From the NCBI RefSeq assembly GCF_001949145.1, contig NW_019091355.1:1635107-1699106 (forward strand): DNA of 64,000 nt. Reading direction: 5' to 3'. This DNA is from Acanthaster planci (taxonomy: Eukaryota). The position numbers and the translations under genes were made by a program. The notes under the pieces were generated by a model, which was not told where the DNA came from, made no database searches, and saw only the letters and a list, made by a program, of their open reading frames with translations. Positions 1 through 37,940 of this stretch are shown here, piece after piece. Positions within the stretch are counted from its first letter, which is position 1, and each line of letters begins with the position of its first letter.

Positions 1-391
1 CTAACAAAAACGTGCTACACCATTGACTTTTGCATTTCACAATATTTTGTTACAAATGCTCATATCCTGTTATCAAGCATCAGAATTTTTTACTCTTTTT
101 TGTTTAATGACGATTGTCCCATGTCATCACAATATCAGTAACAGTTGCAGTTTTTCTTTTAGCCAGAGCAATGTCTTCACACCTCCAAAATGATTGGTTA
201 GAATGCATTATTTGTTTCCTGATCCATGTTCAAAAAGCCGCAAAATCTTTGAGTAATCCCTGTTCACCACTTTCTAAGTTGTATCGTGTCAAATTGGGGT
301 GTGATCCTTGGCTGTATGGTGATTCAGGTTCAATGGCTTTTGGCTGCCCCCCCCCCAGAAATATTGACAAATGGGAAGAGCTACCGACATA

Positions 392-495
392 GGGCTGGAT
401 AGCTCATTTGGTTGAGCACTGGTACAGTATTAATGAGGTTGCAGGTTCGAGTCCTCTTCCAGTCAATTTCTTTGTTCATCTGTATAATTATTATT
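392..495 (+). mobile_element. tRNA-derived SINE, family A copy 1
   Basis: A-box-like tagctcatttgg and B-box ggttcgagtcc, followed by ccagtcaatttctttgttcatct, which is shared with the copy at 32376. Confidence 0.7.
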
Positions 496-2265
496 GTTCG
501 AATGCAGTTTGATTTTTCCCATTTATGTCCCTAACAGTAGAGGCAATCAGCAGTGACAAAAGGGAAATATATGTACCACAAGATGTTTTCGAGTGTGTAG
601 TTGTGTTGGAAAAATCAGTTTTGTTGTCACTATTTATCTCTCACTGATGATTCTTTTTTTATTGATGGTGTCCACATTTATTTTTGTGTATTGTTTCCTT
701 CTCAATTGAGTATTTGAGTTAAAAATTTCCGCATGTCAGGGCTGACATTGTTAGTACCAGTATTGAAGTACAAATTTAACTTCTGACTTTAATCTTCGCG
801 ATTGTAAATGTCATTGATATGTTTTTACGCCATGTCACCAGGAGCAATTCTGCAACCCAGGTGAATTATTGGAGTTTTTATGCTTAGAGTACTGTATTGT
901 TGACTCCATCCTCTTTAGTAACAATAACAGGTGCATTTTCTGGAGTCAATTTGGTGAAAATACTTAACAGCATTTACAATTTGTACACTGTGTACCATGC
1001 CCAGATATGAATGGCCTAAAGGGCTTTTAGAGAATGGCAATTTACCTGAGTAGCAGATTGTGTAATATATGTTTAACATTGTTGTTTATGAATGTACTAA
1101 ATGCCATTGAAATTTAATTTATAAAATCTCATGTTAGACCAAGATATTGAAAATTGGTATTTTGAATGGAAATGTGTATGAGAAAAATTGACCAAGAAAA
1201 CAAATGGAACTTATTTCATTAGCCGAAGACATGCAATGCTCAAGAACTGAGTCGTTACTGCGCCGATTCCTATTTTAAAATCCTGATGGCTAATGGAAAA
1301 TTGCAGCTCACAGAGGAATATAAAGATTGAATAGTTACTGATTAATGCACTTAATATTTTATTTCCATCAAGATCACTAAAATGTTTATCAAACATAATG
1401 TTTCTCACCAGGATATATTTAATCACAATTGATGGACACCACCAAAGAAAAAGAATATTGCTTTTTTTGTATCGAATCTTTTTCAAAAGTTACATTTACC
1501 TTGAAGAATCCTTACCAAATAGAGTTCCAAAGAGCACAAAGAGTTAAGACTGAATTTGTTGGAGAATGTGAACCACAGATAATTCATTTTTCTTTTTTGG
1601 TTGGGCAACATAGTTTGCAGGGATGGGATTGGCCACTTCAAATTAAAGCTAACAAGAATCACCCAAAAGCTGGAATTAATGTAAAAGGTTCCCATACTCA
1701 GTACAGAGCAGGAGTATAAAAAAGCGTCAAATCTAGGCCAACATCTGAAACCCCAAAAGTTTAAATCAGCTAAACAGCTTAATTTGTTTTTGGATTACCT
1801 TTGGTGTTAATCAAGGAAACTTTAACATTGTTGGGATGCCTTACAATTTGTACCGAGAAGCGAATATGTAAGTGAATACTGGTTCTTTACCAAGTTGATT
1901 TCTGAGTAACAATGAGATTAAAGAATTGTGACCAGGTTGATTAATGACTATCAGATTAAACTGCATTAATCTCATATAAATCTTGGTGTACTATCTCTCA
2001 TTTAAACACACTCAGTACAAACATTGGTTTCAAGCAATGTTAAGAAGGTACACTAAATATACCAAACTAACTATTTTTGTATTATGATGATACATGGAAC
2101 GATTTAATAAATTTCTAACCTGTTTACACAAATCAAATGTATTTAAATTGACTTAGTTGCCTGCATTTCTTTGTGCAGGCTCGCATCACTGTGATAAACG
2201 AACATTCCCCAACCTAGTTATATTGTCCAACTCGGCCACCTTTTCCATGCTATACTGAAAAAAGC

Positions 2266-5200
2266 TTAGATGGTTTTACAGTGTTCACACTGGAAATGCA
2301 TCTGTGCTGCCTCTCTTGCTGATACCTTTAAATTTATGCATTCCTGATGAAACCACTGGCAGCATGTGCAACAGCAGATCCACTTGATTTTCTGAAAAGT
2401 AAATGGATGATGATCATAACGTCAAACACTCCATTCACTCTGTTTATCTTTGTTTACATTTTTTCAATACAAAGGATTGCATTTCTAAAATCGGGCGCAC
2501 CTTGTGTTGTTTCCGTGTTCTTTTTGTGGGGTTCAGCTTCTTGCATTTTCCACACATATTCTGCTGAAAGAGAGAACAGAGAAGTAGGGTCACATTCAAA
2601 ATACATACTTGAGTAATTGTATGCCCTGACCAATTTATCACATATATGTTTATGTTTTAATAATGCCTTGACCTGATCAAACCCTCCTCATGATTACATT
2701 TCTCATCGGATAAAGTCATTTAGGCGTAGCATTTGGTACGTTATGAAAAAATACTTTGGCCAGTTTATTTGCACTGTCAGTGGTGACACATAATTAGCAA
2801 TTCAACCCGTGAAACAATGCCAGTTTAATCATTATCTCTCATGGACTCTGCTAAGAAAATTACTCAAAATGAAAGAAAACAAAATCAATGTTTACTTACA
2901 TGTTTTACAATCAATTACTACTTTTGTATCGACAATGAACTTACCAGCTCGGTGTCCACTGGTTGAACTTTACAACGTTCACTGAAAAATAATATTGGTA
3001 CACCAGAAGGAAGTACTTTAAGATGCGTCTGACACAACAATCTAATAGGGAAGGATGTGTTGATTGTTGAACATGATAGTACAAGTAAATGTATATAATT
3101 TGAAGCTTTCACTTGAATACTGAAGCCTGAAATTGTGTTACCTGAGTTCATTATGGTGAAGACTCTTTGAAAACAGACGTCGAGTAGCTTGCTGGAGAGA
3201 GACTGAAGTGTCTTCCTTTGATACTGTGTCATGATTTTTAAAGTGTAAAGCGAAATGACTGTCAGTATGAATGTCCAAAACTATTTGCTTCATGTAAATG
3301 GTGAAATGAAACTGTACATTTTTTTAATACATTTAAGGTGGTAAAGTTTTCATTGGCATTCTTTTCAATAACAATGAAAGCACTGTCACAAACGACTGTT
3401 CAATTTACAGTCAGATGCTGCGCTAAAAACCATTACAAAAATCCATTATTTTAACATACTGATGGTTTACTTACCGTCTGTCTCATGTTCATGTGCTTCC
3501 TCCTGCACATCCCCTTCTATTGGCTCATCCTCTCTGTCTTCTCCTGCTTTCAATTTATCACCTGCATTTTTGGTTGAATGTATAAATCTTAGTTTTTCAT
3601 TGTTAAGCATGCACAGATTTAATAGATTTCAAATGAATCAAAAAATAATAAAACTTCAGAAACCATTAAACTAGACAGTACCCAATGTGACCAGAATGAT
3701 TTGTTTGGTCTTCTTTTTAAACCGTTCTCCAACATGCTCTTGCAGTTAAAGGTGTGTTGTTAAAGACAATTGGAGTTTTTCAGTTGCATGTTGGTGGCAA
3801 ACAAACTGGTCCTTTTCTATTTTTGTGCATGTGGTTACAATTGCATGTCCACATTATCCAAAAGGACCACCGTGTCTGCCCCCACCAAGTTTCCTAAACT
3901 CTCCCAATCAATCCAAAGTTAGATGTTCACTTTATCACAATGTACAATGAATACCATTGCACATAAGGCCAAACAAAATAATAGTTTTGCTTCCTATTAC
4001 ATTGAAAACAAAATGGTTGGCAGGTAGGTTGTAGTTTTTTTCCCTTTAAATTGAAAGTTACAAATGTTTATGTTGGGTTTGATTGTCTACTGTGTACTCC
4101 TGCTGCTGTTTTTTCTCGGTGGATTTAACTTGAGGAACGGTCTGGTAAAAGAATTTGTCCAAGTAACTGAGAAGATTTAGGGTTGGCACAATTTGCTATG
4201 TCGCGGCTGGTAAAAAGAAGTGCAACTATTATTTTTTTGCGTAACATTAATGGTTTACTTACCACCAGTCTCTTGTCCAGTTTTTTCCTCCTGCATGTCC
4301 CCCTCTACAATAGGCTCTACCTCTCTACCCTCCTCTGGTTCCATCGTGCCACCTGCATATTTTGTAAAATATTGAGATTGTATTTGGCAATGGGATCAGT
4401 GTACATATATTTCAGTTCCATTCTGGTTCTTTTTATCATGTCATTATGTTTTGACTTGTGAGGCAACAAACTAAAATAGAAATGAACATTAGCTTTCCTT
4501 TGTTTACCAATTGACTCCCTGTGATTTAGACTCAGCATATAATTCCCTAAAAAAGCATGTGAAACCCTATTTTAAAGAATAATGGGAAGATGATTCATTG
4601 CGAAAAGATTTTCACAAAGGAAATGTCCTTTGGACTTGGAAATTTGTCTGCCCATTTTCCTTATTTGCAGCTTCAATATGTTTCTACAGAATTTATAACA
4701 GAATAACTCAACTCCTAAACCTAACAATTTCCAGGGTGAAAAAATGTATTATGGTTATTTTTCAATCTCAACTCCACCTTGTTCTTTAACTGAAAGCTGT
4801 GTTGGAAAAGACAATGGGGAACTTGGAGAGGGCCGGGGGGCAGACAAATTGCTTCTTTTCCACCTTAGTGAACGAATACATATGCCCGGAATTCATTGCA
4901 CATGGCAAATCATCCAGTAGGGCCACTGTGTCTGCTGGCACCAAGTGTCCCAAACTCTCCTATTCCATTACAGTCAGATGTTACAATGAAAACCATTACT
5001 CAAATCCAGTGTTGTAATATATCAGTGGTTTACTTACCATCTGTTTCCTGTCTAAGTGCTTCCTCCTGCATGTCCCCTTCCTCAATTTGATCAGTCCCTC
5101 TTTCTGCTTGTGCTTTCATTTTGCCATCTGCATATTTTTTCAATGTATAATTCATATTTTGCCACTGTGATACGTATCTTTTAGTTACCAATCTGGTTCA

Positions 5201-8200
5201 TTTCATTGTACAATTTGATTTTCATTTGTTGGACATTAAACTGAAAAAAAGTTGAAACATGCATGATATTTGTTTTCCTGTATTGATTAATTCCAAGTGA
5301 TCTATGCTAATTGTTTCACTTACACCTCTAAGTACACATCCGTATAATGTAAAGAGTACGTGAAAAAAACCATTGCCAAAACGGGCACTCACAGGAATTT
5401 CAATTTGTAGCTTGAACTTAGTCTCTACTTATTACTTAATTACAGATTCAATGTTTCAACTGAACCTATATTAAAATGATTAGAATAAAAAATCCTTTTG
5501 CATTTAGTTTAAACACTTTGACAAAATCCATTCTTCTGACAATCTTTCCTGTTGATGCTTTGAAATGGTCTGACAATGAAAGCAATATTAACAAGGGCAA
5601 TGGAACCTTTTGAGATAAAATGTGGCAGCAGAAAAACCAGTCCTTTTCCAAGTTTGTGGACATACTTTATCATAATGTACACTAAGACTATTGCACCTAA
5701 TCCAGTCTTGGGATATACACATATTAATGGCTTACCACCCGTCTCACGCTCCAGCACATCCGCTTCTTCAATGCGCTCCGCCTCTATATTCTCCTCTGGT
5801 TCCATCGTGCTGCCTGCATGTTTTTTAAAAACACAAAACTAATACTCGCAGATGTGTTCCTAGCACAAATAAATAAACACGCGAATGGTTGTTGTGACAA
5901 CAACAATGCACATGTTACAATCGGTTAATGTGCACATACTATTTTGTCTTTCACTTTAAATTGTTCATTTTTTTTAAAAAAGCTTTATTATCAATTCTTA
6001 AATGGACATATACGGAAATCCAACAAGTACAGATTTTTTTACTGAATTTATTTCTCATTTTCTATAATAGTTTCCAAATTTGATGACCAAATTTGATCCA
6101 CATACACTTAAGAAAATAGTTTCTGATATATAAATTTTACAGAAATGGTCGAATGCTATTTTCCACAGCCATAAGTTATACATGTATGTGTGCAGACACC
6201 TTGTAGATAATGTGCCCTCAATGTATAAATTCAAATATGATATTGTATATAAACTTTTAAAGCAAAAATCTACTCCAAAAAAGTCATTACCCTCCTCTGT
6301 GATCCCTTCTTGAGTCTTTATCTGGAAGGCTGAAGAGAAAAAAAATTGTCATATCATATCAATTTCAAGTTTCATATCATCTTCCTTTCATTGCTTTTTG
6401 AAATTATGATGTATGAGTTTTTATGCCTGCACTGGAGAATCCATAGAACTGATACATGTATTATTGTGCAGTGGTTAATCCTTTTCTCCTTCAAATTTTT
6501 TTTAATGTTATTTTTGGTGAATTTTTTCAATTGGTTTAAATTATTGGCAGTTAATATTGTTAACTACTGAGTCAGGTGCCATGTAATTGTCTTACTCACT
6601 GTAAATGAGGATACAATATACTTCTTGAGATTGCTTCAACATGGGGAGTCTTCCAAGTGTGGCAAATATCGAAGAGAGCATAACACAAATTAACACAACT
6701 GAATAAGAATTAGTTTGTGGACCCAGAAACTTATTATACAACCATATATATGTAATATGCATCTAGTAACTGTCATGCACATTACTATAACTTTCTATGG
6801 CTTTTTAATGCGTTCTAAGAATGGGTTCTTTTACAAAACACATAGCGTGCATGTTGATTTGTGTAAGCTCCACTTAACACTGTACAACGGAGAAGTAAAA
6901 GGAAAATCAAGAGGAGTGGTCTATGCACATACAAATGTGGCAACCACACCTTTTTGGTCACATGATTTGTACTAATAGTTTGAATTCTTTACTTCGATGG
7001 AAAGTGTTGGCTTAAATTACAACTGAAGATGCAATTGATGATAACAAGTATACTTGTAAAACATTGGTAATCTGATATGAACAGATTTTTTGAAGGGCAT
7101 TGGAGCAGTAACAAAATTTTCAATTCCTTTCGCTATTGGCAAACTGTAAAGGACAGGCATTTTTACAGTACAGTAGAGTAATCAACAAAGTCAGTGGATT
7201 GAGCACAGAAAATATAAACTTTTTAAATGGATACTTATCTCGGTTGAAAATGTAAAATTCACAGGGATGTTGGGCAATGAAAGTGCTGTTTTTTTATGTT
7301 GCATGGAACAGTTCAACTAATGAAATATTACAAAATGTCTTAAAGAGTACGCTCAATTGCAGCATCCTGTATATGGTGCACTTTGGCGTGAATCATTAGT
7401 ATGGTATCTCGATTTGGCTGAACAATTGACTAATATCATTTAGCATAGCACAGTGCAAATGCATGAAAAGCAAAACTGCGGTCGAATCGCCAGGCAGGGT
7501 AAACAAATTTGCACCACTTTGCATGTCAAAAGCATGAATGAAGTAAGCAGAGGTGTGTGGAGAAATCCCACACTGGGACAAATTACAAGTGTATACAGTA
7601 GTTGCAGAAACTTTACTGCAGAAACTGAAAAATTTCAGGAAAGGTTCACTTACCGTCTTCAATTTCTGATAGCTGTATGCGGGAAAACCTGGCAAAGGGT
7701 ATCCATACACATCTTCTGTTCCTGGGTCCCGATGAGTTCCCTCCTCTTCTGCAAATCCTTTGATGAGTTGACTCTATGTTTAGGAAAACCTGAATAGTTG
7801 TCATCATGGGATCTGAAGCAATCGCCTTTTTACAAGCCTCCTTTGGTGGGTGAGGGATCTCTTTGGCATCTAGCATATCCATTAGTCGGGCAAGGTTAAA
7901 TGCCAAGCCTTTGCTGAGTTGATACTCAACCTTCGGATTTATGGCAGTCAAAAGCTGAAAGAACATAGTTCTAAACTTAGTTTACTTAAAGTTCATACAT
8001 TAAAGAAAAACACGTAAATTAATTGCCAAATGTAGTGTTTGTGGTCAGAACATAATTTGGAAGTTAAAATAAGCCATGTATGCATTTCAGTTGTATTTTC
8101 ATTGTATTTATACAAATACAACATTTGGGGGTTTGTAATGATTTTGAATTAGAAAAATCATTCACACTTTGTGAATTTTTTGTGAATGAAACAATACTGC

Positions 8201-11200
8201 ATGTTGTGAGTTGCGCGCGCGTTTATATGTTTTTTGTTTCTTTGGCCAACACGAAACCGTCAAAGGTTGAAGCTCAGGCAGTAGAATCCTCATGTTGATT
8301 GAAAGTGTTATTTTCATGTATGAGCGTCATTGATTAAAATATGCAGTGACAGCGAGAATCCTTGTTTGGGTATTACCTCTCAGAGGCCCAACACTCTTGT
8401 TGCATCGATGATCAAACCGGCAATGTCCGCAATGTCTTTGCTGGGTGATGGGAACCCTCTCATTTTTGCACTCCCAACCTGGAACTGTTCAATGCCATGG
8501 GTAACAATTGTACTGTTGAAGAATTCCGTAGCGAGGTCAGGTGGGTAGCTTTGAAGATTAGCCTTCCGTAGGAGCTATCATGTATGAAATGGATGTGAAG
8601 ATTACTGACAATGTTAGTAATCACACGACAGAAGTTGCGTGCAAAATTCTTTTGTGCCGTAAAAAGACTCTCGCCAAGTAATGGGCCTACTTCAACTGAA
8701 ATTTTACTAACTTAAGGGGAAAAATAGTTGTCTTTAAATAGAAGACAATAATTTGTCCCCCAATAACTGTAAACCACAGAAACGGGAGGCTCAAATCCAG
8801 AAGATGTCACCCAGAAACAGCTAGATTCAACAATTCAATCAGTTACACATGAAAACTTTGAAGGCATTCATGACCTAGAAGTGTTTTTAGTGGAATGAAC
8901 ATGATGTGTAAAAGCATAAGGAAAATTCAAGTGGTGCACAAACCACTGCATTTTTATACAAAAGGCAACCATAAAATCTCTGCTACTACCTAAATTCTTA
9001 ACAACTCATGTCAACTACATAATTCAGTCTGATTCAAAGATCCTTTTGGAGCCGCATGATTGAGAAAGGGTGTAGGGACATGCATTATATATAAAACAGA
9101 CCATAATAATATCTGGAAATGAAAATTTGATAAACCCCACTAGTCTCCTTAATTTTAAAAATCCATGCTTATTTGTAGATAAAGGCGAGAAGTGATTGAA
9201 TTTCTAACAACAGGGACAGTACCTGCTCCATTCCCTAAAATTTATCCCAAACCTGTGAATCTAAAAGGGTCATGTTGTGACAGACCAAGTACATAGGAAA
9301 ATATCATCAGTCTAAAGTAGATAAGATTCACAAGTTATGTGCATACGTACGTATTCAGTTAGAAACAGAAGTATCCCATAGGTCAGATGTAAGCGGTCAT
9401 CTGCATCTGTGAGATGGGATAATGCTCTTGCTACAGCAACTCTACTTGTCTGGGAGATTTTTCTTCTGTTTTCTCTCATTTCCACACCAGCTGCAATAAG
9501 CACAGGCATACGCTGCACAGCAGAGTTTTCGAGTTCGTGTCTGTTGCTTTCTGCCTGAAATTGACGCTCGTCACATCTTCTTTGTGTACTGAGAAATGGT
9601 ACGATCACCGCCCTTGTCATCTCACTGTAAATTAAAAAGAATTGCTCAGGTACCTTCAGTGTAATTGAAGTATTTTTTTTGTACTGTCCATCTTGCTAAA
9701 AACAATTTAAAAAATGGATTTTATAATATGACATAAAATATGACAACAACATTTCAAGAGATCCAAACCACATTTTTAAAAACTACAATGATTTCTTGGT
9801 GTGAGTTTGTTTCCTTCTAGTCCAATTTCAACCTGAATAGAACAGTGTTGTCCATTTAAAGGATTATCCAATTTATCCGGTTATATCAATGTATGTGGGC
9901 TTTTAAAATCATTCTGGATTTTAAAACCATGATTTCTATTATTTCAACAATAACTGACAAAACTTTTTTCAAAACTGGATGACACTTGCATAGAGACCCC
10001 CGTCTGGAAAGATTTATTGATTTTGTTGATCATTTTACCTACCGCTCACATCCAGCCAATTTAGAGAGAGCAAACCAGTTTGCACTCACAACAGGACAAC
10101 ACTTTGGAGTTGCTTCCACTGAGCATGTCGCATCAACCCCAGCATTAAAGTACTTTGTCATCAAGCCCTTAATACTTGCAGGCTCAGCATCGTCTATGAT
10201 GACTGGGATAGAGGAAGAAGCAGTTGCCTTTGGCAAGTATCTCTCACGTGCATACCCAAGTAAAGCATTCTTCGCCCCTGTCATTTTAGATGCCATCCGG
10301 CAAGAGGTAGTTTTGCCTGGAAATGTACATTTCACTGTCTGTTAGCTCATATGAAAACCAGTGAAATAATCCAACGTAACAATAACAATTTCAGCAGTTG
10401 ACATGTAGCTCGTATTTTTGCACTATACTGGTTTTGTGATATGGAAAAGGTCCCCAGATGTATTCCAGACTTTGACAACACTAGTGTTGTCAAAGTTCTC
10501 AACTTAATGAAACTGTACTTATTTTTATACACGAATTGCAATATTTCGTTTTGAATACAACAAAAAGCATGATGGCAGCTTGATGACTTTTGGTGGGCAC
10601 CAAGGATGCCTTTTCATGTAAAAAATCTATGAATATTGTTAAACCCTTCTTCAATTGGTAACGTGACAGAAAAATGTTCTACAAATTTCTAAACGACAGT
10701 GTGCAAAATGATTGGCACTAACCTGTATTTATATCCCCGATAATAATTGGCACCGGGCAGCACTTATACAAATCTATTACTGTCTCATAGTGCAAGGACA
10801 TGCAGACACATGCTGAAAAACCAATATAATGGTTCATCGTTAGAGTTCCTCACAAACATAAATCAGGAACGTCAGCTTGTAAGCATACCTTCTCTGTAAT
10901 CATGGTTATTCAACATTATAATATAACTTCATAATCTCTTGAAAGAATTTAGACTAAAAATACAAATGAGCTAGCAATAAATCAGAATAGTAGCCAAATC
11001 CAACAAGAAATAAAAGAAATTTCACCCCTTAATGTTATTATAACCTCCACAATTCCAACTGACAAAGTGCAACAGACTGGAGTCATCGGGACCGGGCTAA
11101 CAAAATAAATTGTGCCTCAGGTCTTACACTTACAGTTGTTCAAAGCAACCAAACAATTTCCTTACCTACAGTGAAAAATGCGGCCATCGCATTTTCGTGC

Positions 11201-14200
11201 AACGTTTCTGCCAACGATAGAAACACATCTCTCAGAACTTGCTCTGAATTGGCATTGTTGAAATGTTCTGGCACTTCTAGGTTGCTTCCTGACATTGGAA
11301 GGAGTTTGTCTACCCAGTAGTACATCTGTCTTTCTGGTGGTATCTCCTCTCCATGCGCATCTAGCTGGAGAGTAGGTGACAGAACCCAGATGTCTTCCTT
11401 TGGCTGTTTGCCAACGCAAACAGCCGCCGGCTGCGTTGTTGGTATTCCTTCCTCTGTACACCGCCTGGAAATAGGACCATAGGGTCATTCTATGAGGTAG
11501 GGTCACAATTTGTAACAGTGTCTTGGTTGGATGGGTCAGTCTAAAAAAACTCACTTCTGTGTTTAGTCTTGATATCTACCAATGTCAATTGAGAACCAAA
11601 TGCAGGGAAGTAGCATTTCGTTTTTACAAACCCGTGTAACAGTGGCATCGTTACACATTGTGCCCCCAACCTCATGGAATGACCCAAGTAGTTAGCTCAT
11701 TCGATTTTGATGTATCATCAATGTAAATGCCACTTCGTACCGTACAAACCAGCTGATACGCAATGTTATTGTATTTAAATAAAGTGATCCAAGTCATTCG
11801 ATTTAAGTCATAACAAGTTTCATTTCTCTCATCTTAAAGAAGGTTTTCAAGTAAAAACATAATTATATCTCTTTCTGTGAGGATGGGGGTAGGAGTGTTT
11901 GAACCTAGAAGACATGTTCTAAATGTGACATGCCTATGGCCTGCGTGGCAGGTTCGTCAAAATCATACACCATTAGGATGAGGTTCAAATTCATTTTTCT
12001 GTTATTTATGCGCTTTATGCCAGCGAGCGAATTTCCTAGGTCTGATGAATTGAGGGGAGTAATTGCTCAGGTTCCGAATACTGAAGTCTATGTCCACATT
12101 TCTTCTTAGGCTTATTTCAAAAAATTCAGTCAAAGTGGCCAACGACGTCCACATCTCGGACTTAAAGAAGGCCACTGCGGTAAAACCTACCGGGCATTTG
12201 CATTTTTTTAAAATTAATGTTGAAAAAGTTTGCGGTAGGCCTACCCGCTGCTTATCATGAATCGGACCGGCCAGCCGACCCCGGCAAGCTCAGCGGTCGA
12301 GTGGTTAAGATGTCAACACCTGCAAGCAGGAGGTCGCGTGGGTTTGGAGTCCCACTCGAGTCTTAAAGCCCGTGTGTTTTTCACAAGCTATCGGACAGGG
12401 ACTGAGCATACAGTGTTTATCAATATACATGTATACGTTGGGTAAGGGCAAAACAAGTTATGAAAATTACATAGTATCTGTTTTCCTTCCTCCATGATAG
12501 GATGAAATACTTCTGCAGCAATTTTGCATGCATATTTGTGTTAGGATATGGTAATATTTACAACTATTAAATCTTAATCTCGAATTAAAAACACTGTGTG
12601 TCGTTGGTCATGAACTATTTTGTCGTAATAGGCCTAGTCTGATACTAGTGGTTAGGTCGGACTTAGTGCTTCTTGGTCGCCTCATTTAGACAAACCAACC
12701 ATGAAATGACAGGGCCTATGTGTTAATATTTGCCTCTTATTTCAGTTTAATGATTATTCATCTCAAGTGTCCCTCGTAACCAAGTGACGCAAATCGATGC
12801 ACATTCATGAGTACAGCTTCATTTTGTCAACTCGATTATGCAACGGAGGCGTCATAAGATTTTTGTTATTTGGTTGTTTACATATCGTTTTGGTACTACC
12901 AGGATGTGAGAAGCATATCAGCAGACCATAGGCACTAGTACCCACGTATAACGCGCCTTTGCACGACTCGGCCCTCATGACGAGAAGACAAAAGTTCTTC
13001 GTTTCAAATTTGAAATTGTGACGTCTCTAACGCAAATGCTGCGCGAGTATTTGATTTATCACGGCAGGAATTTAAGATTTGAAGCGGGCATAACTCACCT
13101 GTAGAACTTCTCTACCTCACACAAAAAGAATTCCTTTAATTCACTCTTGCTGAATGTGTGAAGGAGTCCGCCACAGCCAGCTCCTTCGATGCCAAAAGAC
13201 TGTGAAAGTTCCGTCGTGAACTTATCCAAGCCAGCTTGAATGCAGGAGTGCGTGATGAAGCACAATCTGGTAAAAATGTTCGGTAGCTTATCAGAATTCA
13301 GGTTATATGAACACAAAAGTAATCAGAGGCGTTGTATGTCAGCACAAATGCATTTACGTTGGTCGATACGATTCATCGACCATTCATGAGAAAATAAAAA
13401 ATTACTTATTCCAAACACCGAAATGTTTTTGGCTATGCAAAAACAAGTTTCAGAGGTTACAAACCCACCATTGATTCTTATTCGTAGATTACACATTTTC
13501 ACAAATCAATTTAATTTCAAACGTTACCGCTAAGAGTTTTTAAATTGACATTCAGAAAGACTTTACAATTCCTGTGCGCACGTGATTACCTGTCACAAAT
13601 CCAGCTTGGATAAGGAATTTATAGCAAAACCAAGAACTAGTTTCAATAGGCCCGTGCTACCAAAGCCATTGCTTCAAGTTCAAATGGGTGCATAATTACT
13701 AAATCATTAGTATAGAACTAGTACAACAGTCAGGATTGGTCTTGGATGGCACAGATCAATTACAATTCCAGAAGCCGGGGAAACGACAATTTCAACTCAG
13801 GTGATGCCATCAAGTTTATAAGAATCTCCGCCACATCACTATGCAAAGCCTGACCGATAATCCTTTTTTGAGATTTACGACACAAATGAGGCTACCCCGG
13901 CCCGCGGCTGCCCTCTCATGGGCGCCGTTGACTGTGATATTGCTAGCCGACAGTATTCGTAAACAAGTTATCTTTGTCCTTGCTCCATGATTAAAGCCTC
14001 TTCTTCTTTTTACAGCGGGTTTTAAAAAGACTATCGATGGTCAAGGTATAAGGATAATCTGGGACTTAATTCTAGTTTATTATCAAATACTTCTGCCGCC
14101 GCCGCCGCATCCATCAATACAATCAATATGATGTTTGCCAACCCAACGAGCCATGTTACTTTAACACCGAGGGACGATATCGCGCAAAAAGTTCTCTTTC

Positions 14201-16011
14201 CAAATATGTGATAAACGACAATAAAAAAACCGAGGTCTTAATCCTAAAAACCATACCACTTTTGAAATTATCTCCAATTCAAACTTAATCAACAAAATGA
14301 GCAATTACCCGCATTTATTATTCAAAAACACGGCAAACGTGTATTGTGCAACGTGAAGTTGGCTGACCACCCACCTCACACGAGTACCTCTGTACTGGAG
14401 AATGTACGTTTTTCTAGCAATGAATGTTTGTAACCGAGGAAAAGGGTTTGGTGCAGGTTTCAAAACCGAATTTATTATCAAATGACACTGAATGTCAAAA
14501 TTGATATCAGCAGCTGGGACAAGGAAAAAAATTAATAAGTTGGGGGAACTGCGAGGGAATCTCATCCCGGAAATGATTAATATCATATGCTACATACACA
14601 CATCAGATTTCATTCAAGGTCTGAATAAAAATTAACATGACCACCGCCAAAAAAATCAGAACGTTTACAACAATGTCAATGATAATCTAAAACCAAATAA
14701 TAAAAATTAGGGTATACATTAAACAGATAACAATCGACGCAGAACCAATACTCTACCAGATACAATGTCTAGCACAAAGCAAGTTGCAAACCTTTTTCAA
14801 TGGGTCTGTCAAACTCCCAAGTCAGATTGACGCAGAAGTAAATTTGACCCCGGGATTTTTGTCGAGTGGAGTGCATTTATAAATTGTTGAACGTGCAGGT
14901 ATCAGAGGCAGCTTCAACATGGTATGAAATTGAATAGACAGTGCATAAATCCCCAAAGTAAGAATTGTAATACACGGACATATTACCGCAAATGTTATTC
15001 AAAACAGTTATTACAATGAATTGACAAAGCACAACCGTTCAGGTTAAACAGCTAACAGACAAACTACAATATCCGCTCTTTGGCCTCACGAGAAAAACAC
15101 GTTTCTGTAATGCATCATCCAAAGGTTTAGGCCTTGGTGCGATGGTGTGGTATGGACAAATGTAATCTCCAACCCTCAATAAACAAGAACGTAATTACCC
15201 AGGCCCAGCCGACTTGGCTGAACCCTGTGATAACTCTAATTATTAATTGAAAGAATAAACTGGGAGCTTGGTCTTTGGTTTAATCCACCCACACGTTAGA
15301 ACTGGAGGCATTCTCATGTTACAGGGCACCAGTTTCTTTTCCACCAAAATGTAATATAAAAACCATAGCATTAGCACCATACCTTACATGCAAAGTTCAA
15401 TGCACAATCTCAAATCGTAACCCTATTACGAAACGTCCACTGTCCATTTCAGCCAGTAGTATTTTGACCTCGCTAAAAATCCATGACAGACGAATTCGGA
15501 GTTGTCAGTGGGGCTCAAAACATTACTTGATAATGGACATGGACAATGAAAACGTTCCTTGGGATGTGCTAGTTGAAGTGATGTTTTCATTTTCTTATAT
15601 TATGATAGAGGAATCGTTCACATACATGTACTGCTGTTCGCTTCTTCTCCATACAAATAACACCAGCTTATGTAAAGAAGATTCTCAATCAATCGTTTTC
15701 AAAAAGTGCGTATTAAACTCTTAATGAAAAGTATATGTTTTGAAACAATTCCTCCCGTTAATTCAGTTTATGCCATTTTACATTTACGTATAAAGTACTG
15801 GTATGTAAATAATGTTAAAAAACGGTTTGTTTGCTTACCTGGTGGTATTCATCAAGGCACTACTAACATCAATTAGCAACCCAGCACTCTGCGACTTGTG
15901 TCCGGCATTTATGATTTTTCGTACCGTCATGGTGAATGATGCGACCTCCTTTCTGCTTATTATTTTATTTTGTTCATTTCTCCGGATTTTCCAAGTTCTA
16001 TTGTCCGCCAT
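2266..16011 (-). CDS. 17-exon gene: P-loop AAA+ helicase-like domain (DUF927/Cch- or SF3-like), acidic repeats and C-terminal PHD finger; about 815 codons with one in-frame TGA at codon 491 (possible recent pseudogene)
   Basis: Exons, all GT-AG and phase-compatible: 16011-15839, 13266-13099, 11464-11166, 10812-10723, 10316-10043, 9624-9351, 8574-8377, 7954-7654, 6329-6291, 5813-5736, 5127-5038, 4352-4263, 3561-3475, 3202-3142, 2981-2945, 2563-2501, 2391-2266 (2448 nt). Motifs: Walker A PIIIGDINTG|KTT split by an intron, Walker B PVIIDD, sensor-1-like VVSAN, Arg-finger-like TRAVIVPF. PHD finger: CGKC...KIKWICCCTCCQWFHQEC...FQCEHC-stop. The ATG at 16011 directly follows an acceptor, so the true start may lie upstream (17095-17049 is open in frame). 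Confidence 0.8.
12275..12455 (+). mobile_element. Degenerate tRNA-derived SINE, family B
   Basis: tRNA-like head gctcagcggtcgagtggttaag...gggtttggagtccc followed by body gagcatacagtg...gggtaagggcaaaac. Confidence 0.55.
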
Positions 16012-19000
16012 CTGAAATAGTTCTGTTTTGAAAAGAAAACTTTCATCAATTTCAAAAACTTGTAAAAGCAAGATTACAATGCCCGTAAGAGGAAGAAAGG
16101 CAAATAATTTAAGATCGGTGATGCTTGGCCTTAAAGCATGGTCTGTCACAAGAAACTGTTTCCGTATAGGTCTAATTCATTTCGTTCGGCTCTTTTAATG
16201 TACAAAGATGACGGGTATAGTTTTTGTATTACTTTGCTTACAAGTGCAAGGAAAACAAAATGGGAACAACAACTGATGGGGTCCGTCTACTGTACGCTCC
16301 TGCGCCACAACTGCTAAAAACGTTAGACGTCGATAATGAACAAAACATACAACAGCTACATCCATGTACAGACTATCACAAGTGTTTTTGGATATCAAAT
16401 CACGCACAAATCGCACAAATCACTATTCATTAAAATGTGATTTGAGATTGATAATGGATGTTGTAAGCCAAATTCAAATTCCAAGTTTAGTTTGAAAATT
16501 TTGTAAAAGTTTGATTTAATTGATCGAATTCCAGCATCTACCGGTTTCATTTCCGTAACCGCCCATGCGATGAACACTACAACGATTTCAGCCCCCCTAA
16601 TAAATATACACCATTCTGTTACACTCAAATTAATAGTTTCCTTATTATGATGCACCAGTGTAACTGCATTTTTTCAACAGGTACGTCACGAGTGTGGTCC
16701 GATGTCCGCTCCTTTCACACGTAAGTGAGAGCGGGCGGACGCCGGATAGATAGCACGGTTTGAATGGTATTGACAGCCACTTGTAGTTTGAATTATTGGT
16801 CTTCTTACCAACGACTTCTTGGAATGGTGATGAAGCATAAAGACTCCATAAACACGTGCGAAATATACACAGCCTCCTTTCAAAATTGAATTGTACCTGA
16901 GTTGGTAAAGCAGCTTGTAAATATTTCCCCACAAATCGTGTCAGTTGAAACATGGAGAAATGAAATTTTCCTTTCTCTGTGACCGAAATGTAGATGTTTC
17001 ATCTAAATTGTTAAGTGCATTTTCATGGTCAAACTTCTATGTACTTACCGTTGCGTGACATTTTCCTTCTGATACCGTCAATCTCTGTCGAATACCTGTA
17101 TCTTTCGGCAATATGTAAAGCTTCAGGGGGATACGATCATAAGAATTTAGAGTCAAGGCAGAATGCTTCCTAGACCAAAAGCAACTTCGAGGCGACTGTA
17201 AGAATAAACAATCACTTAATTAATGTTATCAGGTGCAGTACGATACATATTCATTACGTGGACGATGTGATAAACATTGCTGATGGTCAACCCGTACTCT
17301 GTCTGGATCGACTTATTCTTTAAGAAGACCCACGAAAACATATTAATACAGCTAAGACGGGTCATCGTGTGGGTGAAATCATTGTTTCGAAAGGTCGTTA
17401 AGAAAATCTGGGCCCACCTAGAAATGTGCTCCGTCGGGAATTGCATTTGCTAAAGGGGGTATCTTTCGATGTCGTATAACGTGTAGCTGAAAATGGAACT
17501 TCTTTTAATTAAAAAAGAGACGCGTGGGACTTAACAATGTACAACCAATTAACTTGCAGTGATTTCTCTCATTTTACATTTAGGCCAAATACAGGCTCGA
17601 GGCTAATGCCTTATGGTTTGCGGTGAAGTGTGATGCAACAATTCTTCTCCTGTTTGTGGATTCATAGCATCTGTTATTAGGAAAACAGAAAGAAACAACA
17701 GGCCCACATAAAAGAAATCAGAGAGATCAACCTGCAACGTACACGACATATTTCTGGCTTGTTTGTTCTCCTGAAAACAGATGCGATACAGTCTGTTGGA
17801 CTGCCGAAATTCTGTACATGGGTACAAAGTAGTAAGTAATATGGGCAAACACAATCATTGCAAGCGCCCTTCGCAACTCATCTATGAAAACACAATAAAT
17901 ACTACGCTACGTAATGTTCCATAAATGTACATTGGCAAGTGCAAATCTACCGCATCAGCGGTAAACAGTCAACTGTTTCTTGTAAACGCAGGCGTCGTAG
18001 ACCGACCGACCTTCGCATCTGCAAAATAAAACAATCTGTCCAAAAGCTACAAAGGTTCGTTTGATCAATTGGACTAAAAAATTGATCATTTGGGAGGTTT
18101 CAATGCGTAGGCCATACCGTCGACAAATGCAATAAAGGAGTTCATCTTGTGAACATCACATTTAATGCAGGTTTTTCCAGCGGATGTTATTTCTGTCACC
18201 AACATTCACATATGAGAATATTACGAAGAGGCTTGTCCCATCTCCTATTTACGTGAAAAAGTCGAATACGTTTTGAAACAGCAATTAGTGTGGGGTCCAT
18301 GCTGTTTCAGTGTTAGTGGCAGCTAGGGGTCCATGCCATGCAGCAGCCTTCTGCATAAAAAGCGCGTCAATTCATCACCTTAGCCACGATAGTGATGAAG
18401 GTCTTTTCTTGACATACCTCAGGGGTGTTTTCAGTTTGTATTGTGTAATTTGTAATTCTCCGTGTCAAGTGTTATGTTTGTTGTTTATGTCTTGATACAT
18501 TCCCCTTAGAAATGATATGAATGAGCGCTGGAGCCAAGCGTTGGGTAGCCGTTAAAACCGCTGTAACTCACACGTCCGTTAGGTTTATTTCAATAGTGTA
18601 GGAGAAACGCGTTTACGAATCATGCACGGATGTAAACACGTACATACACTACAGGCAAATGTTGATCATTTTAAAAACTAAAAAAGTAGAACAATCGAAT
18701 ATGCATCATTTTGAAGTCATAACACCTAGATGACTATATACAAAGGCTATAGAATCAGAATGTGACAAATCATGGAGGAATGTCTATTTCTTCCTCTATG
18801 GACAAATGCAATCCAGAGTGGAGGACTAGCCAAAAGCAACATGGTCTTCAGCGATGAGAATGGGTAATGAGAGCGCCCTCAATATCATGAAAAGAACTGT
18901 AACAATTTCATATGCATCCTGAGTACTAAAAGATGACGTTATTGATAAAAAAAACCACATTACCAAGTTGACGGCAAGGCTCTTACTCCCTATAAGGAAA

Positions 19001-23097: not shown

Positions 23098-26000
23098 CTA
23101 AGTAGTGCTGGTGCTCTTTACAACTGGAAGCAATGGGTCGTAACCGCTATTGTAACAATACTCAGTGTACTTGTTACGCCGAACCACCATTCTGTGCAAA
23201 TAAAACAAATGGTGTAATTTTGGCATGGCACACAATATTTTTTTATATCGTGACAGCCACACGAAAGTTTGCTCAGCACAAAGAGTATTGTCCGTCTCCA
23301 ACAGATGATCATCTGGGTTATACTTTGTTCTGCACAGCTTGTCGGTGTGGTTTCGTACATGTAACCTGTCTACACACTTGTGCAGATTCAACCACATGTG
23401 AGACCATGGCCACGCAAGTGGTAACGGTTTCCTAGCAACGTTCATGTTGTCCAAGTGGCACATATTATCGTACACTATGGACAAATTGGACCACGAAGTA
23501 AACGGCACCGTCCTCAAGAAAGGAAACAGCCAGGCTATGAGAATCAGGAAGACCTGTGAGGGTGACTCTGACCTGTAGACATACAATACATTTACAAAAA
23601 TACAAAGTAAAAAGGGGAGAATTATATGAAAATGCTTTTTTTTTGTTAATGAAATATGAAATCACGATATCGTTACATCTTGTTTACTTTCGGTGCCGAT
23701 TGAAATTGAAGAAAAAATCAAAGTAAATGGGAGCACAAATTATATGGACTCTTGGGCAGAAATTACAGATTTTGTCTGTATAAAACACAGCGCAAATGGC
23801 TTTTTATTTTTTTTGTAATTATTTCTGATTTAATACTTTACACATGTCAACATATTTTAAGATCATTACATGACAGTAATTTAAAATGACAACCTTTCCG
23901 CATCTAGCAATCTCCATAATTTTGCACACCATGGTTATTTACTTCAGAGGATAAAGTAGGTTAAACTCTGTCAAAGTTAATGACTTCAGGTCAAGGAACG
24001 AACTAAACGTTCACGACTGGCCTAGCAACAGTCCGGATCTCAACGCAATAAAAAATCTCAGAAAGGTTGAGAAAGAAAAGGTTGCAGAAAAACAGCCATC
24101 AAATACCAAGGCCTCAGTTTAAGCCATCAAACAGTCTGTTAGAAGGAAATAAGGGTGGACTACTGTCAGTCTCTCGTAACCAACATGCCATATAACATTC
24201 AGGAGGTAATCGCAGAAAATTGAGGGCACGTTAAACATTAGACTGTCCACACATATTGAGTTATTGACATGCGGTCAACAAGCAATTCAGGCAAGACAAA
24301 ATAATGAACATTTGAAATCGATGTCAATTCCAAACATTTATTTCAAAAAAGTTAGGTTTTTCCTCCGAGCTAATGCATTTTTTAATGGGCAGTCTTCAAC
24401 TGTTCATACTGTCTGGAATTCTTTTTACTTTAGCTGCACTTTTAAAAAAGGTGCACTAGATAACAGCTTAAAAAGAGGAGCATTATGAAGATTTAACAGA
24501 AAAGGATCAATGTCCAATGCCTATTTCAGATTAAATTTCAGAACATACTCACTTGTACAAAGTTTTCCAAAACTCAATATGGCCACCAGCACGAACAACA
24601 AATAAATGCCCCCTTGACCACTTCTGAAGTCGTTTCTTGCCTCCAACATCCTTCTTACAGGTCGATGGTATTTCTTCCACACATTCATTCAGCATGGTGG
24701 AAATGGAGTAGCTGTGTTCATTGAGGAAGGCTGTTGTTCCTATTGTCAATGTGGGTTGCGATAGTAAGAAGAGTAGTTCAGATCACAGGAATATAGGGTT
24801 ACATGAGGAGATGTTCAGACTCCTTTTGTATAGTGTGGTATTTTGAATGAATGACAATAATGTCTCCAACCTTGGTCTGTTTCATACTATCTATATGCAA
24901 AACAAGACATGGGATGTAGGGTAACCCCTACAAGTAACTAAAAATATTTTTCTCACATAAAGCCAATTGACGGGCAAAAGCAGCTCCAAAAATTGTCAAA
25001 GTCTATGGTAGCACATGCATATTCGAATGTGTATGCATGTTTCGATTGCCAATTGCATGTGCGTCACAAGAGTATGGAACTTAGACTCTGTTGATATCTA
25101 TTTAAGTTGTACCCCAAGTCACAATTCATATCAATGATAACAAGACAGACATTATAGACTATTGAGAATGAACACATGAACCTTGCCCTTTTTTCACATA
25201 ACACAAAATAATGAGATTCACATTGGATACTTTATGGAAAGCTTGGGTTTCGAAAGGTCAACCGTAATTTGTGGTTGTTTCACAGATAAACGAGAATTTT
25301 ATAATGTCTAGAATGTAATGTATGCTTGCATTTCCATACGTGTACATTTATCTAACAATATTCCAGGCACAGAATTTCTTTACATCTTTTCAACACAGTG
25401 GTTTGTTAAGGTAAAAACAACGCAATGTAGAATTTTTGGCAAGAATTATTCATTCATTTACAATATGATTGTACAGATTACGCATTGAAATTTCAAAGGA
25501 GACAATTCAGGTGTAGGCAGCAAGGGTAACTACTGAAAAATAAATGCCCCTGGTGCAGCATTTCTCACCTTGGGCATCCACTACAGATTCACCACAACAC
25601 GACACTGGCTGCAACTTGGACAGGACTCCACCAACTTTAGTGATTGTTTCTTCTGTTGAAAACAAGAACAAAAAATCAGCATAAATTTGCATATCATTCG
25701 GTAAATGTATCTTACACATTCAGATCAGTTTGTAATAATAACAAATATAATGGTTTAAAAATAAGGGAAAAAAAACTAAGAGGGTGGATGGCCTTAAGAT
25801 GTGCACAGGACAATGGGCACAAGTCACGTCAAACCAGGCTTACCCCATTCAAAGATTTATTCGCATTAGCACATGCCCTTTGAATCAAAACAGCTCAAAA
25901 TATGATGGAGTTCACTTAGAAATTTCAAGAATGTTATTGAACTACTCAAGCACTGAAACCCCTCGGCATAACTTGCAAACAGCAGCTTTTTGAAAATAGA

Positions 26001-37701: not shown

Positions 37702-37940
37702 GGTATTGATTCATCATAAATACAACTGTTTCAAACGCAAAAAGACAAAGATAAGCAGAATACCCAACGAGAAATGTAAGTCGAAAAGCAATGATATGAA
37801 AAATCTAAACACGTGCGTGCGATGGCTAGAAGAAAAGGGAACGTAAAGGGAGGGAACGCGCATGCGTGGGGTTTGTAGCAGGTAGCGATGCTACAAACTA
37901 CCAGCCCTGATTTCTTTCGTCCCATTTCGTGCATCAATTG

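Follow-up and report, generated by a model that had tools for sequence, protein, structure and literature searches.

A 17-exon gene on the minus strand

The window, a 64-kb stretch of the genome of the starfish Acanthaster planci, contains a spliced gene of 17 coding exons at 16011-2266 on the minus strand, which runs from an ATG at 16011-16009 to a stop codon at 2268-2266. A reading of the splice sites in the window sequence showed that all 16 introns are of the GT-AG type, and exon-by-exon alignment to Patiria proteins gave tblastn E values from 1e-10 to 1e-43. The original prediction had followed the gene as far as exon 8, which ends at 7654, and had missed nine more coding exons that lead to a PHD finger.

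The first eight exons encode the helicase part. Exon 1 (15839-16011, residues 1-58) carries the ATG, begins an N-terminal beta-rich domain, matches residues 1-61 of Patiria P0003 (tblastn E 4.6e-11) and is followed by a GT donor after 15839. Exon 2 (13099-13266, residues 58-114) is flanked by AG and GT splice sites and matches P0003 residues 59-116 (E 5.9e-13). Exon 3 (11166-11464, residues 114-214; E 1.6e-19), overlapped by an X1 transcript contig over 11166-11347, bears the conserved VGKQPKEDIWVL motif (residues 131-142) of the DUF927-type N-terminal domain. Exon 4 (10723-10812, residues 214-244; X1 contig over 10722-10814) supplies the opening half of Walker A, GDINTG, at its end, and exon 5 (10043-10316, residues 244-335; X1 contig over 10098-10315; E 2e-43 with Acanthaster P0001) contributes GKTT with K245, Walker B and sensor-1. 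Exon 6 (9351-9624, residues 335-426), supported by the RNA joint 8574>9351 and by X12 raw RNA reads, contains TRAVIVPF, in which R340 is the putative arginine finger, and the beginning of the helical lid. The remaining helical region lies in exon 7 (8377-8574, residues 427-492; E 7.8e-16; RNA joints 7954>8377 and 8574>9351), and exon 8 (7654-7954, residues 493-593; RNA joints on both sides) encodes a C-terminal winged-helix-like domain, in which the basic loop RRGG..PRNRR sits between the last two strands.

As had been predicted, the Walker A loop is interrupted by an intron. Exon 4 ends with GAT ATA AAT ACA G at 10723, followed by GT, and exon 5 starts with GC AAA ACT ACC at 10316, directly preceded by AG, so that the phase-1 GT-AG intron 4 (10317-10722) divides the codon of the Gly that precedes the Walker A lysine. 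In Patiria proteins, GDVNTGKTT runs unbroken across this site. The spliced product contains GDINTGKTT (239-247), PVIIDD (281-286), VVSAN (319-323), TRAVIVPF (338-345), a helical region, RRGG (561-564) and PRNRRCVWIP (569-578). This reproduces the motif order of the original prediction, except that PVIIDD follows GKTT after 34 residues and not after about 30. Walker A K245, Walker B D285/D286, sensor-1 N323 and the Ser/Thr-R340 pair are all kept, and in a family alignment the catalytic motifs line up and are conserved across the window product, other animal members and cyanobacterial proteins. We take R340 to be the arginine finger, by analogy with the SRF motif of MCM proteins.

Downstream of the helicase part, exon 9 (6291-6329, residues 593-606; RNA joints 5812>6290 and 6329>7654) is identical to the corresponding part of the RefSeq product XP_022103185.1. 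Duplicated acidic exons then lead to the PHD finger. These are exon 10 (5736-5813; direct-repeat family D1), whose donor was first predicted and later confirmed by letter-for-letter identity with XP_022103185.1, and the direct-repeat exons 11 (5038-5127; RNA joint 4350>5036), 12 (4263-4352; RNA joints 3559>4261, spanned by four X9 raw reads, and 4350>5036) and 13 (3475-3561; RNA support). Exons 14 (3142-3223; RNA joints 2981>3142 and 3223>3475) and 15 (2945-2981; RNA joints) precede exon 16 (2501-2560; RNA joints 2391>2501 and 2560>2945), which carries the first PHD cysteine pair; exons 11 to 16 are likewise found in XP_022103185.1. Exon 17 (2266-2391) contains the rest of the PHD finger, including WICCCTCCQWFHQEC at residues 784-798, and the stop codon.

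Splicing is directly visible in RNA, where the junction check suggested by the original prediction found the predicted joints. X1 transcript contigs contain 11 GT-AG joints, and 8 of these 11 recur in X9 raw RNA reads, with 1-4 reads each. Among the 11 is the Walker A joint 10315>10722 (cut +1), present in one X1 contig of depth 2.7; the joint leaves out 406 bases bounded by GT..AG on the minus strand, and its shorter flank is 93 letters long. Expression is very low (about 2 reads deep at most), and the 6 reads of X12 are confined to exons 3-6. Across four RNA runs, the region 12941-16200, which holds exons 1 and 2, has no read or contig; these two exons are less well supported because they are defined only by homology to Patiria P0003 and consensus splice sites.

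This copy of the gene carries an in-frame TGA at codon 491 (8382-8380) in exon 7, where the starfish relatives P0001-P0004 all have Gly. As the sequence reads, a full-length product would be impossible, and translation would break off after the ATPase and helical lid. XP_022103185.1 (LOC110985910) equals residues 517-821 of the locus letter for letter and begins at Met517, downstream of the TGA. The helicase part falls entirely outside what is annotated as coding. Two paralogue models similarly begin at the first Met past Walker A, which indicates that the family is systematically under-called.

Homology, fold and the PHD finger

Sequence comparisons establish the gene product as a homologue of DUF927 helicases. 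A phmmer search of 1.84 billion sequences with residues 1-609 of Patiria P0003 returned 275 representatives at E<=1e-3, 66 of them at E<=1e-10, and reached P0116 and P0141, two proteins of Prim-Pol, PriCT_2 and DUF927 domains, at E 3.6e-8 and 6.9e-7. With Pfam DUF927 (cut-off 22.6), P0116 obtains 32.5 bits and the related cyanobacterial protein L001 23.8 bits. When the animal profile was aligned with a cyanobacterial DUF927 profile by hhalign, the probability was 99.9% (E 3.2e-34) over 334 columns, which cover the Pfam-matched region of P0116, and the neighbours in the ESM Atlas, at cosine 0.97-0.98, are DUF927 clusters. The Pfam model itself (PF06048) has no match in the window exons or in P0001-P0004, even at E<=10, which places the window protein beyond its current reach; among 47 scanned family members, 7 match at E<=0.01 and one (P0116) exceeds 22.6 bits. 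Single window exons compare weakly with the DUF927 profile (hhalign probabilities of 12% and 62%), the higher value being that of exon 3, which aligns in register with the cyanobacterial proteins at E 7.3e-5. A Pfam scan detected no primase domain in the protein.

The full-length fold was assessed on a model of a Patiria paralogue (pLDDT 88.5, pTM 0.76). The model has a three-domain fold like that of Cch, which consists of an N-terminal domain, an AAA+ core with lid and a C-terminal winged-helix-like domain. Its best structural match is SCCmec Cch (5DGK), with a Foldseek E of 7.8e-10 over 603 columns and a VIA Z of 21.2 (389 aligned residues, rmsd 4.8), and SaPIbov1 Rep (8TCH) follows at Z 19.3 with 434 aligned residues spanning model positions 14-605. 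Phage DUF927 and primase-helicase proteins align over 610-660 columns, with E values down to 7e-19. For the window protein, an AF2 model of the exon 8 domain (pLDDT 91) gave a best VIA Z of only 4.6; most of the listed matches are winged-helix proteins, and the C-terminal domain of SaPIbov1 Rep ranks third at Z 3.8.

The PHD finger is recognizable from its sequence. Exon 17 by itself scores 24.7 bits on Pfam PHD (PF00628; cut-off 24) although it lacks the first Cys pair, which is supplied as CGKC by exon 16 and completes the Cys4-His-Cys3 pattern. The exon is also matched by tblastn with the PHD fingers of P0001, P0002 and P0004. The solved sequences nearest to the Patiria PHD finger are the PHD fingers of KDM5A, KDM5B, DIDO1, ALFIN-like proteins and BPTF, and the domain likely reads histone tails.

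Origin and role of the gene product

Taken together, these results make it probable that the locus is a transcribed 17-exon gene, TGA-interrupted in this copy, whose product is a Cch/DUF927 ring helicase homologue with a PHD finger, and that this product is by prediction an ATP-driven hexameric DNA translocase, likely held on chromatin. If it works like Cch and the SaPI Rep proteins, it would form a ring, hydrolyse ATP and translocate in the 3'-5' direction. The basic wing of its C-terminal domain would bind DNA, and the PHD finger would likely hold the helicase on chromatin. Such a protein may descend from a replication gene of a mobile element or phage; in the process the primase partner would have been lost, and introns, an acidic linker and the PHD finger acquired. 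The original prediction of a virus- or prokaryote-like replication gene with many spliceosomal introns, distinct from standard metazoan ATPases, thus agrees with the nearest folds, the phage DUF927 matches, the phmmer and hhalign results and the 16 GT-AG introns. Its suggested layout, DUF927/Cch or SF3/D5, holds for the first, MCM-like alternative (Z 21.2 and 19.3) and fails for the second (Z ~11.5).

The family is widespread in marine invertebrates. Relatives are present in at least five animal phyla, with members in sponges, cnidarians, acorn worms and amphioxus besides starfish, and each starfish genome contains several paralogous loci. Passages in two papers place all DUF927 proteins known so far in mobile elements or phages (PMC5862659, PMC4889955), and in a literature search we found no report of DUF927 in animals, the titles and abstracts of the DUF927 papers in this search being concerned with prokaryotes or their viruses. 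A broader reading, which we put forward tentatively, is that of an old, expressed family, ranging from sponges to amphioxus, that descends from a self-loading replicative helicase of bacterial integrative elements or phages and was rebuilt as a chromatin-tethered ring helicase with a DUF927 core, an acidic linker and a PHD finger. Possible roles are replication, repair and genome defence; alternatively, it may form the replication module of an as yet unrecognised class of eukaryotic mobile DNA. Annotation would have overlooked the family because Pfam is blind to the DUF927-like core and introns cut the motifs. If true, this would be a clear case of domestication, in which a mobile-element replication protein was taken into animal genomes, and would add a new candidate chromatin-associated helicase that is missing from the usual model organisms.

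The genomic surroundings bear on what the helicase does. Within the 64-kb window, no primase, integrase, capsid or polymerase ORF and no origin-like repeat adjoins the gene. Among ten larger ORFs scanned elsewhere in the window, Pfam matched only one, a KDZ-transposon cysteine cluster 21 kb away. A replicative role is thus not implied by context, and the missing primase partner would also suit a protein that kept the fold and changed its job, becoming a non-replicative AAA+ machine such as a BrxL-like NTPase for nucleic-acid sensing or restriction-type defence, or a chromatin remodeller. Structural neighbours include the AAA+ phage restriction factor BrxL (Z 12.1), and the family has lineage-specific paralogues and fast-changing repeat tails, as immune gene families of invertebrates commonly do. 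We nevertheless consider this change of job unlikely: the two closest structures, ahead by 6-8 Z units, are proven replicative helicases according to passages in PMC7581432 and PMC9371898, and all ATPase motifs are kept together with the putatively DNA-binding C-terminal domain.

It is quite improbable that the locus belongs to an endogenous virus or an integrated mobile element, with the helicase as its replication initiator, now or formerly, and the PHD finger tethering the element to chromatin. The mobile-element setting of the known DUF927 proteins, with L001 encoded beside a tyrosine integrase, would fit this, as would the stop codon in this copy and the scattering of B. belcheri members over different branches of a rough tree. 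Some clusters of relatives at 90% identity also have many members on different megabase-scale contigs (13 in the P0105 cluster and 6 in the P0051 cluster), although one species with several assemblies may account for this. The sixteen GT-AG introns and the presence of spliced mRNA argue against such an element or virus, as do the surroundings described above and the starfish paralogues, which are annotated as ordinary multi-isoform genes. That the protein comes from an ordinary eukaryotic P-loop family, be it STAND/NACHT, kinase-type or some other cellular ATPase, and resembles mobile-element helicases only superficially is hardly credible, since the sub-threshold Pfam matches to nSTAND3, nSTAND_NTPase5 and generic AAA over Walker A in 4 of the 47 members, and the one ESM Atlas neighbour cluster with nSTAND3 on 14% of its members, stand against the hhalign alignment to DUF927 proteins, a Cch and SaPIbov1 Rep match that extends beyond the P-loop over the N-terminal domain and AAA+ core (and the C-terminal domain for 8TCH), and the absence of STAND, NACHT and kinase chains from the best 50 matches listed by Foldseek or by VIA.

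Comparison with known helicase systems

The ring helicase homologue that we favour can be set beside several known systems. The SF3 proteins, poxvirus D5/E5 and SaPI5 PriRep5, have a similarly compact spacing of Walker A, Walker B and sensor-1 and Foldseek E values of ~1e-4. They were rejected as closest relatives, with VIA Z scores of ~11.5, below the MCMs and far below Cch and Rep at 19-21, and with no D5_N or Primase_Cterm signature in the animal protein; whether DUF927 is classed as SF3 depends on convention, since a passage in Kazlauskas et al. counts it among putative SF3 helicases (PMC4889955). MCM2-7, archaeal MCM and MCM8/9 have an AAA+ core of the same clade, and the model has a beta-hairpin before the sensor-1 strand. 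Membership in the MCM family was also rejected: the alignment is limited to the AAA+ core (model residues 130-475; Z 12-13.4 over ~260 residues), the N-terminal domain is unmatched and there is no Pfam MCM match.

SaPIbov1 Rep resembles the model with its C-terminal domain included, but belongs to a bacterial pathogenicity island and binds the iterons of its own origin, whereas the starfish locus has neither iterons nor an island context. Cch, described in passages of PMC7581432 and PMC9371898 as a DUF927-containing hexamer that unwinds 3'-5' and binds its origin via the C-terminal domain, has the same domain order as the animal protein, from the N-terminal domain through AAA+ with helical lid to the C-terminal DNA-binding domain. 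It gave the sole long alignment in a profile search of PDB sequences, a weak one (E 0.06), and is ~11-13% identical. Introns, a long acidic repeat linker, the PHD finger and the location on an animal chromosome set the animal protein apart, and its gene lacks the adjoining LP1413-type partner gene and origin.

The nearest non-animal sequences that we found are the cyanobacterial PrimPol-PriCT2-DUF927 proteins of integrative elements (P0116, P0141 and L001), and phage DUF927 primase-helicases match the whole Patiria model. In contrast to the animal protein, which has no primase, the cyanobacterial and phage proteins carry an N-terminal primase and have neither a PHD finger nor introns, and integrase and cargo genes lie beside such relatives. 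The cyanobacterial proteins and the animal family have in common the motifs G-x-Q..(W/Y)V, Walker A, WDD/IDD, (T/S)xN and SR. So far, descriptions of DUF927/Cch helicases have been confined to phages and to the mobile elements of bacteria and archaea, a range that the animal family would widen.

Gene model, transcription and interruption of the reading frame

The window is AT-rich animal DNA, and its minus strand carries a gene that begins with an ATG at 16011 and ends with a stop codon at 2268-2266 (LOC110985910). We modelled this gene from tblastn searches with two Acanthaster planci (P0001, P0004) and two Patiria miniata proteins (P0002, P0003), from splice consensus and from RNA joints. 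The queries came from word-indexed searches, which overall returned only these four starfish proteins and, with exon 3 as query, no relatives of greater length. The model consists of 17 coding exons with GT-AG ends at all 16 introns and a coding sequence of 2466 nt (821 codons plus the terminal stop). Its residues 517-821 are identical, letter for letter, to XP_022103185.1, isoform X2 of LOC110985910, which confirms exons 8-17, including two boundaries that had previously only been predicted.

According to the original prediction, the Walker A motif is split by an intron between 10723 and 10316. The exon sequences bear this out: GDINTG closes exon 4 at 10723 and (G)KTT opens exon 5 at 10316, the divided codon being a glycine (G|GC), while the Patiria proteins have an uninterrupted GDVNTGKTT and a transcript contig carries the junction. 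The motifs expected after splicing were all located in the product, in order: GDINTGKTT (residues 239-247), PVIIDD (281-286), VVSAN (319-323), TRAVIVPF (338-345), RRGG (561-564) and PRNRRCVWIP (569-578).

An index of sequencing runs listed no RNA data set with this sequence, so RNA reads and transcript contigs were aligned directly to the window, and the predicted junctions do appear in transcripts. Intronless contigs of run X1 define ten minus-strand joints between 2391 and 9351 with GT..AG ends, eight of which also occur in the raw RNA-seq reads of run X9 (1-4 reads each). The Walker A joint (10315/6 to 10722/3) is present in one X1 contig, at a depth of 2.7 and with 93 letters on its shorter side. 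A further 11 letters of this contig correspond to the end of exon 3, and the joint between exons 3 and 4 is known only from this loose end. A third run, X12, contributes six reads that fall on exons 3-6, while the intervening introns have none. The e1/e2, e2/e3, e5/e6 and e10/e11 joints are not among the RNA matches listed, and exons 1 and 2 have no coverage in the aligned reads and contigs. With an RNA depth of about 1-2, the gene is expressed at a low level in these samples. RNA-seq depth in the region peaks, by a wide margin, within intron 2 (~11650-12450). All runs have 95-99% matches to this stretch, along with numerous loose ends and joints on the opposite strand, a pattern suggestive of a dispersed repeat that is expressed from many loci. 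A tRNA search there with ARAGORN was negative.

The reading frame has a single lesion among its 821 codons, an in-frame TGA in exon 7 (8382-8380, minus strand; codon 491), where P0001-P0004 have glycine. The RefSeq product begins at Met517, downstream of this codon. As read, the locus would therefore yield a 490-residue product or the annotated 305-residue tail rather than the full protein; the former would contain the N-terminal domain, the ATPase and the lid. An assembly error was set aside, as an X1 contig covers 8377-8408 with no differing letter listed, and so was selenocysteine, the position being a conserved glycine. The locus is an interrupted paralogue; it is the family that is of wider interest.

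Relationship to Cch and DUF927 helicases

The helicase part has no significant match in Pfam, NCBIfam or PHROGs: Pfam returned nothing for eight ORFs of the window, NCBIfam nothing relevant for the four starfish proteins, and PHROGs only matches at E 0.27-0.51, including one to a family of DNA primases. The ESM Atlas placed residues 1-640 of P0003 next to bacterial DUF927 clusters (cosine 0.97-0.98), which we treat as a lead only. A phmmer search with residues 1-609 of P0003 against 1.84 billion representatives gave 275 matches at E<=1e-3; among 47 of these scanned with Pfam, seven contain DUF927 at E<=0.01, one of them above the cut-off. The scanned set includes two cyanobacterial proteins, P0116 and P0141, that combine Prim-Pol, PriCT_2 and DUF927 domains. 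Comparison by hhalign of an animal-centred alignment (95 sequences) with an alignment of three cyanobacterial DUF927 proteins gave a probability of 99.9% (E 3.2e-34) over 334 columns, spanning a G-x-Q..WV motif, Walker A, Walker B, sensor-1 and the SR motif and reaching into the lid. Single window exons gave only 12% and 62%, in the same register. Against phages, tblastn returned one match for P0003, to its repeat tail only, and one for P0116, a primase match of 76 residues.

A full-length relative of P0116 (55% identical) occurs in a Chroococcidiopsidaceae metagenome-assembled genome, where a tyrosine integrase and metal-efflux genes adjoin the DUF927 gene, marking the locus as an integrative element. 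At positions 1-9811 of this locus (L001), the integrase lies divergent from the PrimPol-PriCT2-DUF927 gene, with genes for cadmium and cation efflux after it, an arrangement that looks like a small integrative metal-resistance island.

The AlphaFold and Foldseek checks were run on the Patiria paralogue P0003 (residues 1-609, animal-centred alignment; pLDDT 88.5, pTM 0.76). The SCCmec helicase Cch (5DGK) ranks first in Foldseek against the PDB (E 7.8e-10 over 603 columns), followed by MPXV E5, vaccinia D5, PriRep1 and MCM at E ~1e-4. Structural alignment with VIA on the 970 chains from Foldseek likewise favours Cch (Z 21.2, 389 aligned, rmsd 4.8) and SaPIbov1 Rep (8TCH; Z 19.3, 434 aligned, model residues 14-605) over MCMs (Z 12-13.4), BrxL (Z 12.1) and D5, E5 and SaPI5 (Z ~11.5). 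Phage primase-helicases in a viral library align over 610-660 columns, the lowest E being 7e-19, and four of the best 50 matches listed are named DUF927. The layout had been likened to either Cch/DUF927 or SF3/D5 helicases; the first half of this proposal holds, and the second does not, the predicted fold being nearer to MCM than to SF3 helicases. The best 50 matches listed by Foldseek and by VIA include no STAND, NACHT or kinase chain, and a P-loop protein of these kinds is very unlikely. The proposed kinship with DUF927/Cch proteins is thus supported along four lines, ESM Atlas, phmmer, hhalign and structure, which agree that the protein is a divergent member of the Cch/DUF927 lineage.

Exon 8 encodes a C-terminal domain, whose own-sequence model with nine relatives (pLDDT 91) has the order beta-beta-alpha-alpha-beta-loop-beta-alpha. 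The basic RRGG..PRNRR segment, described earlier as hairpin-like, is modelled as the loop between the last two strands. Foldseek found no match for this domain at E<=0.001, and a wide VIA comparison gave a best Z of 4.6, with none of 5 or more; its entries are mostly winged-helix DNA binders (FOX, PadR, ORC, RFX), and the third-ranked is the C-terminal domain of SaPIbov1 Rep. Judged from the model, exon 8 likely forms a winged-helix-like DNA-binding domain.

Acidic tail, PHD finger and neighbouring sequences

Exon 8 is succeeded by an exon of 39 nt, four duplicated acidic exons and three short ones, and the gene closes with a PHD finger. The four acidic exons (78-90 nt) and their flanks are segmental duplicates spaced ~690-790 bp apart at 3400-5830 on the minus strand, with direct repeats at 4246-4368, 5021-5143 and 5707-5829 and at 3405-3517 and 4968-5080. 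A TRF scan of 2000-7000 for tandem repeats with periods up to 500 was negative. Aspartate and glutamate make up 28% of tail residues 593-780. The Patiria and Amphimedon paralogues also have repeat tails at this place, but these are unrelated to the Acanthaster acidic exons.

With only the last exon as query, the Pfam score of the PHD finger is 24.7 bits (cut-off 24). A phmmer search of P0002 and P0003 against PDB sequences gave PHD fingers and low-complexity matches only, and the solved sequences nearest to the Patiria finger are those of KDM5A, KDM5B, DIDO1, ALFIN-like and BPTF. These PHD fingers are readers of methylated H3K4, and the domain is predicted to place the protein on histone tails.

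Elsewhere in the window, an ORF at 37057-37710 (minus strand), beside a run of N at ~37.9-38.7 kb, contains the CxC5 cysteine cluster of KDZ transposases (Pfam, 41.5 bits) and is therefore a transposon remnant 21 kb upstream of the helicase gene. Its suspected kin at 23098-23661 (minus strand) has no Pfam match. Two adjoining long open frames of 297 and 506 aa at 55735-58149 (minus strand), likewise without a Pfam match, lie in the one part of the window that is rich in GC (0.54).

Distribution and comparison with known systems

The family is present in five animal phyla, counting the four starfish proteins. Organism names are available for 11 of the 30 representatives looked up, each of them an animal: Amphimedon (2), Oscarella, Clytia, Paramuricea, Ptychodera, Branchiostoma belcheri (3), B. 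floridae x japonicum and Acanthaster. In Amphimedon, a single annotated protein, P0023 (864 aa), combines the N-terminal domain and the ATPase with a PHD finger at its C-terminus. P0001 and P0004 lack the N-terminal domain and P-loop because their RefSeq models start at a methionine just after Walker A (MAS.M.G); like the RefSeq model at this locus, they are likely truncated.

Many further matches are fragments of ~250 residues on megabase-scale contigs, as would be expected from prokaryote-style gene calling on eukaryotic exons. Two clusters with at least 90% identity (P0105, 13 members; P0051, 6) are spread over different megabase-scale ENA contigs, which means either that one species is represented by several assemblies or that the family is multi-copy. 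One relative, on an AT-rich metagenome contig (L003, 1761-3540), is intronless; it is of P0095 type, with the Walker A GDPGTYKTT, and is read in two frames, which implies a frameshift with respect to P0095. Upstream on this contig, an ORF on the minus strand resembles the end of a LINE reverse transcriptase. A rough FastTree phylogeny (56 sequences, ~225 columns, rooted on two PrimPol proteins; 96 of 152 input rows were left out for covering <80% of columns) did not group the named taxa cleanly, and we draw no inference from it on transfer events.

In the non-subscription literature searched, titles and abstracts place DUF927 only on prokaryotic elements or their viruses, and no animal DUF927 or Cch-like family was found there. 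DUF927 is described as one of the helicase domains that occur in fusion with primases in mobile elements and phages (PMC5862659, PMC4889955). Cch contains DUF927, forms hexamers, unwinds 3'-5' like MCM and uses its C-terminal winged helix to recognise origin DNA in double-stranded form (PMC7581432, PMC9371898). The gene has no primase, integrase or origin repeats beside it in the window, and hence its context does not indicate a role in element replication. The animal proteins retain K245, D285/D286, N323 and R340 as well as all three domains, on which basis the protein would act as an ATP-driven ring translocase on DNA. Compared with these systems, the starfish gene represents a helicase family that is already known, but in a host domain and an architecture that are both new.
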